DNA of 64,000 nt from Pseudomonadota bacterium. Its GTDB lineage: Bacteria > Pseudomonadota > Gammaproteobacteria > Burkholderiales > JBFMAC01. The stretch covers positions 42,685 through 106,684 of the forward strand of contig JBFMAC010000007.1 in the NCBI GenBank assembly GCA_040756015.1. The letters are read 5' to 3'. This document shows positions 56,649 to 57,814 of the stretch, in pieces (position 1 is the stretch's first letter; every line of letters begins with the position of its first letter). Both the position numbers and the translations under genes were made by a program. The notes under the pieces were generated by a model. That model was not told where the DNA came from, made no database searches, and was given only the letters and a program-made list of their open reading frames with translations.

Positions 56649-56833
56649 CTATTCCTTTTCATGGAGCAGGTTGAGTGGGTCACTTACATTTTGGCTCCGG
56701 CATAACATAGGCTGCACCTATGTGAGTCTGCGCCAAAACGTGAGCGATTTCTCCTTTAATACCAGCGATTCAAATTATTCCTTTGTCGTGTAGCAGATCC
56801 AGTGGATCGTTCACGTTTTGGCTCCGGCATGAC
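56649..56833 (-). repeat. Two degenerate copies of the shdrB2 3' end, each preceded by a hairpin
   Basis: The copies translate as ..QNVNDPLDLLHDKGII* (56770-56833) and ..QNVSDPLNLLHEKE* (56649-56706), against the gene tail HENVSDSLDLLHEKGII*. Confidence 0.85.
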
Positions 56834-56902
56834 GCAGCGCTTCTCGCTGCATCAGCGTACGCCGAAACGTCGGTGACATGTCCAGCCCGTTTCCATTACC
56901 GC

Positions 56903-57814
56903 TTAGATGATTCCCTTTTCATGCAGCAAGTCGAGCGAGTCACTGACGTTTTCATGTATACCGAGCTTGCGTGCCGATAGGCCCAGCGCCAATCCCAGCA
57001 ACTGGGTGAAGTACACTATCTTTACCTTGGTCTTGATGCCGAATTCGGTCTCGGCGCGCACTTGGTGCATTTCCAGCCCGGAATGACAGGTGGGGCATTC
57101 GGTGGCGATGATTTCCGCACCACTATCTTCCGCCGCTTGCAGTAGGTTGAGTACGAGTTGGGTCGATGTGTCGGAATCGGACAGGGTGTGCGCGCCGCCG
57201 CAACAAGCGGTCTTCAGCGGGAAGTCGACGTTCTCGGCGCCTGCCGCGGCGAGCAGGTCGTCCATGAAGTGCGGCTTGTAGGAGGATTCCGAGCCGGGAC
57301 CCTGGTCTTTTTCCGGGAAAATCTGGCGCGGGCGGGTGTACATACAGCCGTAGTAGTTGGCGATTTTCACGCCGTTGAGGCTTTTGCTGATGCATTGCTT
57401 GATGCCGTCCGGGCCGACTTCCTCCATCAGCCATTCAAGCAGGTGCACGGTGCGTACGTTGCCACGGTATACCGGATCGCCTGCTTTCTTCGCCAGCCCC
57501 TGCACGGTTTGCAATGCTTCCTCGGAGGTGGCGAGTTCATACTCCGCCTTTTTCAGGTTGTGGTAGCAGCCGTTGCACGGCGCCATCACCGTGTCGTAGC
57601 CCATGGTTTCCGCAGCGATGGCGAGGTTGCGCGCCGACATATAGGTTTGCAGCATGGGATGGACGTTTTTTACTTCCATTGCACCGCAGCAATTCCAGTC
57701 CTGCAGGTTGTCCATCTCCAGGCCGAGCTTGTCGACGATGGCGCGCGTGGAGTGATCATAAGGCCCGCCCGAGCCTTCCAGCGCACAGCCGGGGTAATAT
57801 GCAACTTTAGCCAT
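56903..57814 (-). CDS. shdrB2: sHdr subunit B2
   Basis: YYPGC, WNCCG, APCNGC, YYGC, ACCGG and CPTC (CCG domains). Confidence 0.93.
   Translation of the reverse strand: MAKVAYYPGCALEGSGGPYDHSTRAIVDKLGLEMDNLQDWNCCGAMEVKNVHPMLQTYMSARNLAIAAETMGYDTVMAPCNGCYHNLKKAEYELATSEEALQTVQGLAKKAGDPVYRGNVRTVHLLEWLMEEVGPDGIKQCISKSLNGVKIANYYGCMYTRPRQIFPEKDQGPGSESSYKPHFMDDLLAAAGAENVDFPLKTACCGGAHTLSDSDTSTQLVLNLLQAAEDSGAEIIATECPTCHSGLEMHQVRAETEFGIKTKVKIVYFTQLLGLALGLSARKLGIHENVSDSLDLLHEKGII

Follow-up and report, generated by a model that had tools for sequence, protein, structure and literature searches.

What are the additional gene ends that follow shdrB2 in this genome, and how did they come to stand there? The window analyzed here, a stretch of 64,000 nucleotides from a bacterium of the Burkholderiales (lineage JBFMAC01, contig JBFMAC010000007.1), carries shdrB2 on its minus strand. 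Downstream of the gene stand two recoded copies of its 3' end, each directly preceded by a short palindromic element that we call G. The explanation we favor, with a probability of roughly 55% and from sequence comparison, is that the copies arose by stacked insertions of a mini-module which would carry a gene end with it and would be mobilized by an enzyme acting in trans.

Architecture of the shdrB2 array

The gene shdrB2 (56903..57814, minus strand) encodes an HdrB-like protein of 303 amino acids with two CCG domains (Pfam CCG, E = 3.7e-27), which shares 86-91% identity with HdrB2 of Burkholderiales and other Betaproteobacteria. Only one full-length tblastn match was obtained in the genome, so that shdrB2 is present as a sole copy. 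Its in-frame tail t0 (56903..56952, minus strand; AAAAC GTC AGT ... ATC ATC TAA) encodes N V S D S L D L L H E K G I I followed by the stop, a peptide typical of real HdrB2 C-termini, and opens unit 0. In the direction of transcription, t0 is followed by linker 0 of 25 nt (56878..56902), which does not align to the spacers at orthologous loci, by anti-tail 0 (56864..56877, GTCACCGACGTTTC), which repeats the beginning of t0 in inverted orientation with one mismatch to t0 and five to t1, and by the element G0 in its short form (56820..56863; GGCGTACGCTGAT-GCAGCG/AGAAG/CGCTGC-GTCATG-CCGGAGCC; nhmmer E = 6e-5). Unit 1, likewise on the minus strand, comprises the first displaced tail t1 (56770..56819; N V N D P L D L L H D K G I I, stop TGA), linker 1 of 21 nt (56749..56769), anti-tail 1 (56735..56748, ATCGCTCACGTTTT; one mismatch to t1, five to t2) and G1, again of the short form (56693..56734; GGCGCAGACTCAC-ATAGG/TGCAG/CCTAT-GTTATG-CCGGAGCC; nhmmer E = 2e-9). 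The second displaced tail t2 (56649..56692, minus strand; N V S D P L N L L H E K E, stop) is truncated and frameshifted and has no anti-tail of its own.

The array thus consists of two head-to-tail units and a third, truncated tail. The repeat unit is made up of tail, stop, linker, anti-tail and G, where the tail covers the last 16 codons, the linker 21-25 nt and the anti-tail 14-17 nt; we refer to the part ahead of G as X. The tails start 133 and 127 nt apart, and the tail and hairpin sequences quoted in the first-pass annotation of this DNA were all found on the minus strand. The spacers between the tails are homologous to each other as well. A repeat finder returned a 51-nt family with 76% and 65% identity, and Tandem Repeats Finder gave no match at the array because the units are too diverged. 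The sequence CCGGAGCC, at first taken for an insert, is really the conserved right end of a palindromic element of 42-44 nt, and the small hairpin is the variable central stem of the same element. The spacers had also been said to contain no in-frame start codon, which holds for copy 1 (t1), without a start upstream of its tail, and fails for copy 2 (t2), which has an ATG at 56708. This ATG lies inside the G1 hairpin, opens a frame of 19 codons and is not conserved in unit 0. The 14-mer GTYATGCCGGAGCC was considered as a dispersed motif and rejected, as it occurs exactly twice in the 2.35-Mb genome, both times at the array, and the other matches to ATGCCGGAGCC are unrelated coding DNA.

Each anti-tail, a feature absent from the first-pass annotation, can pair with the tail of its unit. 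GTCACCGACGTTTC pairs with AAAACGTCAGTGAC, and anti-tail 1 together with the next GGC (ATCGCTCACGTTTTGGC, 56732-56748) pairs with GCC and the start of t1 (GCCAAAACGTGAACGAT) over 17 nt at 94% complementarity. The two stems are unlike in sequence and both still pair. In the window as well as in loci L039 and L134 (see below), each anti-tail is complementary to the tail within the same unit rather than to the following one, which indicates that the unit is one coherent piece. When the array was folded as single-stranded DNA, long X hairpins alternated with small G hairpins (z = -2.9; none of 100 shuffles folded as well).

The displaced tails diverged as coding sequences

Comparison of t0 with t1 gave 2, 2 and 12 differences at codon positions 1, 2 and 3 (12 of 16 at the third position, P = 8e-4), corresponding to 11 synonymous and 3 non-synonymous codons. 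Between t1 and t2 the differences numbered 1, 1 and 10 (10 of 12 at the third position, P = 5e-4). Eight tail pairs pooled yielded 44 synonymous against 15 non-synonymous codons, with 9, 11 and 48 differences at the three positions (48/68 third, P = 4e-10). A model of one coding and one neutrally drifting copy predicts about 40% synonymous codons and is rejected (P = 7e-8). Since silent-type differences dominate, the copies diverged as working gene ends. Copy 1 shows 79% identity to the real tails of other lineages, compared to 67% to the tail of its own host. The significant third-position excess bears out the initial description of the recoding as mostly silent with swapped stop codons; together with the swapped stops and the identities of copy 1, it also supports the view that the copies are former or foreign coding ends and not a decayed local duplication.

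Between them, the copies carry the substitutions S->N, S->P and D->N at invariant or near-invariant sites, one of which is S in 118 of 120 real HdrB2 proteins. These changes at invariant residues and the frameshift of copy 2 indicate that both copies are now decaying, and make a use as alternative C-termini, as had been suggested, unlikely. A paralogous hdrB as source of the copies was rejected, as the genome holds one shdrB2 and only one paralogue of 25% identity. Also discarded were a diversity-generating retroelement, the differences not being adenine-specific, and shufflon-type switching, every copy being in one orientation.

A further reading is that a chimera of strain variants was collapsed into a false tandem array. 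The assembly is of metagenome type, and in run X4 a related strain, with 85% identity over shdrB2, has a contig that ends at 56958, a few bases from the tail start at which the array begins. However, a 440-nt contig from run X2, which belongs to another study, spans 56556-56995 with 0 differences, and runs X3, X4, X5, X7, X8 and X9, which together with X2 represent three other studies, contain the same sequence with at most one single-nucleotide polymorphism. The same architecture also occurs in unrelated assemblies. As independent contigs agree, the array is no assembly artefact, and we consider a chimera hardly conceivable. Among the runs compared, the array is invariant within the species; an exact-protein look-up in other assemblies gave no match. 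Judging from the position of the contig end in run X4, mixtures of strains may cause the assembly graph to branch at the array.

The same codon of shdrB2 is occupied in other lineages

We collected 80 shdrB2-lbpA loci from other genomes and performed a metagenome pattern scan in addition. In most orthologous loci the spacer measures 5-130 nt, and in many 5-60 nt. Extra tails were found in three of the 80 loci only, namely L039, L085 and, as a remnant, L025, while the metagenome scan returned five loci, one of which (L134) is a true shdrB2 module. In this spacer comparison, of the kind proposed in the first-pass annotation, 75 of the 80 orthologous spacers are without the structure. In the complete cases, the anti-tail stands 22-31 nt past the stop and is followed by GGCG.AGGCTAA., a hairpin, CCGGAGCC (CCGGAACT in L085) and a displaced tail whose first bases are AAAAY. 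Because anti-tail and conserved blocks are confined to loci with extra tails, they are part of the insert rather than of the ancestral operon. The shdrB2 codon at which the array of the window begins is likewise occupied in L039, L085, L134 and the L025 remnant, and this use of one point in four other lineages agrees with the early suggestion of scars left by repeated insertions at one precise position of the gene. In L025, the spacer (3410-3470) contains a 30-nt partial tail copy (GACCTGCCGCACGGGAAACAGATCATCTGA) and no element, and looks like the remnant of a former unit.

Locus L039 allows a filled site to be compared with empty ones. In loci L020 and L035, whose shdrB2 shares 92% identity with that of L039, the spacer measures 32 nt and lacks the module. 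Relative to these, L039 contains a tail A of 50 nt, 45 unrelated nt and a G of 57 nt, followed by a tail B and the native downstream DNA. The displaced tail B retains the TCN serine and GGC glycine codons of the clade. The in-frame tail A instead uses AGC and GGG and is 96% identical to the tail of L033 and 94% to the in-frame tail of L025. Informative sites in L039 are of the clade type up to position -64, with one exception at -125, and of the foreign type from -49 to -37, a switch that places the breakpoint at CACGA|AAAATGT. Identity to the tails of relatives amounts to 0.90, 0.90, 0.85 and 0.90 for the displaced tail compared to 0.83, 0.83, 0.79 and 0.83 for the in-frame tail. Judged by these sequence markers, L039 shows a unit that brought its in-frame end with it, the displaced tail being the native one.

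G is a dispersed palindromic family

G is a non-coding palindrome of 40-60 nt, with arms GGCG(C/T)AGGCT.AC ... GT.A(A/T)G ... (G)CCGGAGCC around a variable central stem. The copies in the window (42-44 nt) read GGCG.A..CT.A.-hairpin-GTYATG-CCGGAGCC. The outer stem is formed by whatever flanks G. Two forms can be told apart, the short one as seen in the window and a long one with a second small hairpin ahead of GCCGGAGCC.

The strict pattern was detected in 35 of 401 genomes (~9%) and in 24 of 167 genera of the order, with 2 hits for the reversed control. A sampled genome holds up to 11 strict copies, which can form tandem pairs or triplets 63-227 nt apart. A profile search with nhmmer identified about 15 diverged copies in the genome of the window, including two further tandem pairs; the genome-wide search for more hairpin-and-motif units that had been recommended thus turned up others of the same kind. 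The two pairs are located at C1:232427-232676 (209-nt spacing) and C12:20076-20265 (134-nt spacing), and the units of the former are identical, pointing to a recent duplication. The right terminus varies between the copies of this genome (GCCGGAGCC, GCCGTAGCC, GCCGCAGCC and others).

Structure and covariation were read from 33 copies. The position adjoining G is an unpaired C.A in 32 of them. At flank positions 2-7, between 55 and 88% of the copies form Watson-Crick pairs of several types. Covariation extends over these flank pairs, the central stem and the inner box (GGCTAAC/GTTAAG, GGCTCAC/GTGAAG, GGCTGAC/GTCAAG), and the central stem is always a palindrome of 4-7 bp whose sequence is unrelated between copies. 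Rfam 15 gave no relevant match over 56000-57400 at E<=10; it was also silent on the classical attC sites beside intI and is unusable as an attC control. No match to a long-form G copy was obtained in plasmid and phage sequences, and signature strings of G retrieved only unrelated primer matches from searchable papers. The family seems to be undescribed in the searchable literature.

Gene ends are duplicated next to G at unrelated genes

The 30 nt that follow G on its right match a segment beginning 40-140 nt to the left of G in about 17 of 29 copies (z > 5), and this duplicated segment usually takes in the end of a housekeeping gene. An acs-like gene has three tails and two elements, and the native terminator stands only after the last tail. 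The tail copy of a yggX-like gene shows five differences, four of which are silent, including the exchange of TAG for TAA. At serS a tail copy lies beside the element, and smpB and proB are each occupied at the same codon in two families. The pattern is not limited to 3' ends, as the element also occurs at the 5' end of a gene on the reverse strand, where 3 of 3 differences are synonymous, and in the anticodon loop of a tRNA-Ser gene. In L114 (~1330-1700), the tRNA-Ser gene lies downstream of serS, with a duplicated 5' half upstream of the element and an intact tRNA downstream. The shdrB2 array is an ordinary member locus of the G family, and the idea of a system confined to shdrB2 has to be given up, since numerous unrelated genes, among them a tRNA gene and one affected at its 5' end, show the same pattern.

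Throughout these copies, the homology ends at a stop or start codon. The first bases of X vary (AAAAC, ACAAC, ACAAG, ACTAC, AGAAC), and the left flank is always complementary to them. In the genome of the window, folE2 is accompanied by an element with tail, anti-tail and a right-hand copy of 16 nt. This folE2-like open reading frame (C2:~86100-86300, locus L110) runs through the anti-tail and stops at a TAG within the conserved block GGCGTAGGC; through this read-through, its C-terminus (...IERDKAKQRRVGLEVSA) may be partly encoded by the element.

A model of stacked insertions and the points against it

In the model of stacked insertions, each X+G unit would enter shdrB2 whole at the codon pair GAA|AAC. 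The simplest entry would be that of a small circle or fragment, by way of one crossover in the opening bases of X. The incoming unit would supply a ready-made in-frame end and shift the previous end downstream, and since shdrB2 would be left intact, such insertions would be tolerated. The order t0-G0-t1-G1-t2 could result from two insertions of this kind, or from a single one combined with unequal exchange involving a foreign allele, and the displaced ends would then decay. The recombinase would act in trans; candidates are tyrosine recombinases such as the integron integrase encoded here or Xer, which is ubiquitous. Any effect on the shdrB2-lbpA mRNA would be secondary.

Several observations weigh against this model. 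That a unit brings its own end is supported mainly by one locus, L039. The direction test is weak in the window, L085 and L134, where the nearest relatives are only 81-86% identical in the gene body: it leans the same way as L039 in L134, ends in a tie in L085, and in the window assigns the in-frame tail an identity of 0.70 to the tails of the nearest relatives as opposed to 0.65 and 0.61 for the displaced tails. Most of the diverged copies in the genome of the window keep the anti-tail and have no detectable right-hand copy. Recombination between two X copies would delete X+G without a trace, and empty sites cannot separate gain from loss. The model also leaves unexplained how a unit with a matching anti-tail is first made for a new gene.

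Further points concern the enzyme. In favor of the model, no transposase or integrase family recurs within 1.5 kb of 29 copies, the neighbors being housekeeping genes, so that the copies are non-autonomous; of the HUH/Y1 transposase or recombinase envisaged in the first-pass annotation, none is linked to the copies. Against the model, Y1 transposase genes occur in four of seven element-bearing genomes (G000, G294, G144 and G194) and none is flanked by G; G257, G230 and G388 contain the element and no Y1 gene. Integron integrase (TIGR02249) is found above the cut-off in only four of the seven, namely the genome of the window (476 bits, C15:60841-61782), G194 (which holds the L039 site), G144 and G388, compared to 0 of 14 controls. 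The attC sites beside the intI of the window genome are of the classical GCCCAAC...GTTGGGC type, unlike G, and the G copies are located on contigs other than that of intI. Neither a circular or excised form nor its joints were seen in assembled contigs. Behind the integrase (C15:61800-63300), at least two cassettes with classical attC follow, and their array is apparently interrupted after ~1.5 kb.

Relation to known repeats and mobile elements

Repetitive extragenic palindromes (REP), including BIME and REPIN arrangements, are mobilized by RAYT (Y1) transposases (PMC2817692; PMC3116915). Like G, they are extragenic palindromes, short and rich in GC, whose hairpin is preceded by a G(T/C)AG-like head and whose stems are kept by compensatory changes; they cluster just after genes and are non-autonomous and chromosomal. 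In a REP, the head GT(A/G)G immediately precedes the palindrome on its 5' side (PMC2817692), whereas the head of G is GCAG in most of the 33 copies, GTAG in a minority and GTAC in G0 of the window. REPs usually exceed 100 per genome and BIMEs alternate, as opposed to ~15 copies of G in the genome of the window in head-to-tail order. A rayt gene is flanked by two inverted repeats, and the Y1_Tnp genes of G000, G294, G144 and G194 are not so flanked by G. Unlike G, REPs are not known to duplicate the end of a neighboring gene. A RAYT/REP link is not supported, given these unflanked Y1 genes and three element-rich genomes without Y1.

Integron attC sites are bounded by the boxes R'' (RYYYAAC) on the 5' side and R' (GTTRRRY) on the 3' side. 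Integron cassettes resemble G units in being small, promoter-less and stacked head-to-tail, and in their imperfect palindrome, which is set by structure and combines AAC/GTT-type boxes with an unpaired position and a variable terminal stem. In contrast to cassettes, G units measure 110-230 nt, contain no open reading frame and are dispersed at housekeeping genes, not beside intI/attI. The box order of G is inverted relative to attC and its triplets are not invariant, while the X hairpins (GCC(A)MAAC / GTTK(C)GGC) follow the attC order. The attC sites of the resident integron were discarded as the same element, being of a different sequence type.

Elements that integrate at gene ends, such as tRNA/tmRNA-targeting islands and SCCmec at rlmH, carry the 3' end of their target gene in the attachment site. 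G units are alike in that a replacement end is supplied, the old end is kept as a direct repeat, insertions stack and the differences are of the silent type. Direct repeats of the gene end flank the insert, with a proximal copy that keeps the gene intact, in the window, L039, L085 and L134 and at acs, yggX, serS, smpB and proB. Such integrative elements, however, span kilobases and encode their own integrase, whereas the unit in the window has ~130 nt and no gene, and its conserved part is a palindrome of 40-60 nt.

Tiny protein-less palindromes that need an enzyme in trans are also known as palindrome-associated transposable elements (PATEs; IS200/IS605-type) and miniature inverted-repeat transposable elements (MITEs) such as Correia or RPE. 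Some of these are, like G, tolerated within or at gene ends. G differs from MITEs in lacking a direct duplication of 2-10 bp and conserved terminal inverted repeats at the unit ends; the 5 nt beside G are covarying inverted complements, and a flank copy of 16-100 nt starts 40-140 nt upstream together with a matching inverted copy. Compared to PATEs, G has no fixed tetra- or pentanucleotide target and is a single central hairpin system instead of two end hairpins. The Beta-proteobacterial repeat element (BRE; Hot et al. 2011, PMC3110155) is a chromosomal repeat of 40-90 bp with variable tandem copy number and no known function, some copies of which overlap the ends of open reading frames. BRE shares with G the bacterial clade, the small size and the frequent tandem arrangement, but has a different sequence (TTTTTTTTTGGCCGCGGGCCGCCCAAGGCAAAAAAGCCCCC...), and PMC3110155 reports no duplication of gene ends. 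Identity of BRE with the G family was dismissed, as the BRE sequence list contains neither CCGGAGCC nor GGCGCAGGC nor the complement of either.

Alternative explanations

The array could also have grown in place. A single G would have inserted near the end of shdrB2, its flank would have been copied through a long duplication at a staggered cut, or through a pair of template switches at AAAAC/GTTTC microhomologies, and slippage or unequal crossing-over, as in variable-number tandem repeats, would have followed with divergence in place and no foreign end carried. Young arrays with near-identical units exist in L100, L099 and the genome of the window (C1:232427/232636), the BRE repeats of the clade vary in tandem copy number between strains (PMC3110155), and the in-frame tail of the window is slightly closer to the tails of relatives than the displaced ones are. 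However, neutral drift of one copy is at odds with the 44:15 ratio of silent-type divergence (~40% synonymous expected, P = 7e-8), and t0 and t1 are saturated at third positions (12/16) while only 4 of 32 first and second positions differ. The linker of the left copy has no counterpart on the right in L039, L094, L108 and L134, which is not what a simple target duplication leaves behind, and the junction and codon markers of L039 indicate an incoming tail. We therefore hold growth in place to be unlikely. An RNA device in the shdrB2-lbpA spacer would place the function in the transcript. Alternating hairpins would govern how the downstream lbpA genes are processed, stabilized or translated, and the tail copies would compete as pairing partners. 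The array does lie on the sense strand within an operon and has no intrinsic terminator, its anti-tails can pair with the preceding and, more weakly, the following tail, and compensatory changes maintain the stems. With 75 of 80 orthologous loci lacking the structure, RNA decoy or regulation cannot be the primary explanation; the same element also stands at unrelated genes, antisense at a 5' end and in a tRNA gene, Rfam offers no match, and RNA pairing does not explain the silent-type divergence. A primarily regulatory role is thus very improbable.

More closely related to the model of stacked insertions is an integron-type version of it, in which the integron integrase would move the units as tiny cassettes, with an attC-like role for the X hairpin (GCC(A)MAAC ... 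GTTK(C)GGC) and with the site in the gene (G|TTTTC on the other strand) serving as a secondary site. The distribution of the integrase, present above the cut-off in the genome of the window, G194, G144 and G388 and in none of the 14 controls, fits this proposal. Once the C.A mismatch is removed, the outer boxes become GTTGGGC/GCCCAAC, the R'/R'' pair of the resident integron's attC; moreover, the X hairpins show the attC box order AAC-GT...AC-GTT, and the boundaries of the units coincide with G|TT on the other strand. On the other hand, the box order of G is opposite (GTT..AAC..loop..GTT..AAC), GTT and AAC are not invariant, with the G of GTT in only about half of the copies and with CAC/GTG and GAC/GTC as variants of the inner box, an integrase above the cut-off is missing from three genomes that hold up to 11 copies, and the copies are dispersed and not beside intI. 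We regard this version as a doubtful candidate. An equally speculative idea is that the units represent an unrecognized class of protein-less gene-end mini-cassettes, whose conserved palindrome of 40-60 nt, joined to the copied gene end and its matching inverted segment, would be the recombination handle by which an enzyme in trans, possibly the integron integrase or a different tyrosine recombinase, would excise a small circle and reinsert it at the same codon of the orthologous gene in other cells. If this holds true, a natural system would attach structured recombination sites to ordinary gene ends, with a bearing on the origin of integron cassettes.

Implications for gene ends and annotation

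Small palindromic repeats are usually regarded as intergenic filler. The family described here occupies precise codons in the ends of essential or metabolic genes (shdrB2, serS, smpB, proB, acs, folE2 and a tRNA), where a spare end keeps the gene intact and earlier ends stack. Should units pass from one genome to another, lineages would exchange the terminal codons of their housekeeping genes, a readable record of past alleles would remain, and the system would offer a testable natural case of recombination sites joining gene ends. In annotation pipelines, the arrays give rise to spurious small open reading frames and long 'spacers' in operons. Assemblers tend to break at them, and the arrays may be of use as strain markers.

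Neighboring features of the window

The next gene of the operon is lbpA (56071..56514, minus strand), which encodes a GcvH-like lipoate-binding protein (Pfam GCV_H, E = 6e-28). Between lbpA and the array, and abutting the array end without being part of the element, lies a REP-like palindrome (56526..56645) with the arms ACCGCAAATGACGCGAGGGA / TCCCTCGCGTCCTCCGCGGT, 79 nt apart. Both arms match many sites on other contigs (blastn) and thus represent a second dispersed repeat family. A nested palindrome of 60 nt (2949-3008, CCCTCTCCCGGCCTTCGGCCACCCTCTCCCGCAAGCGGGAGAGGGGCTGGGGGAGAGGG) lies in frame within ileS; it was considered as a G copy and assigned to a different family. The shdrB2-lbpA spacer of L085 holds a CCCTCTCCCGCAAGTGGGAGAGGGG unit that resembles this ileS palindrome.

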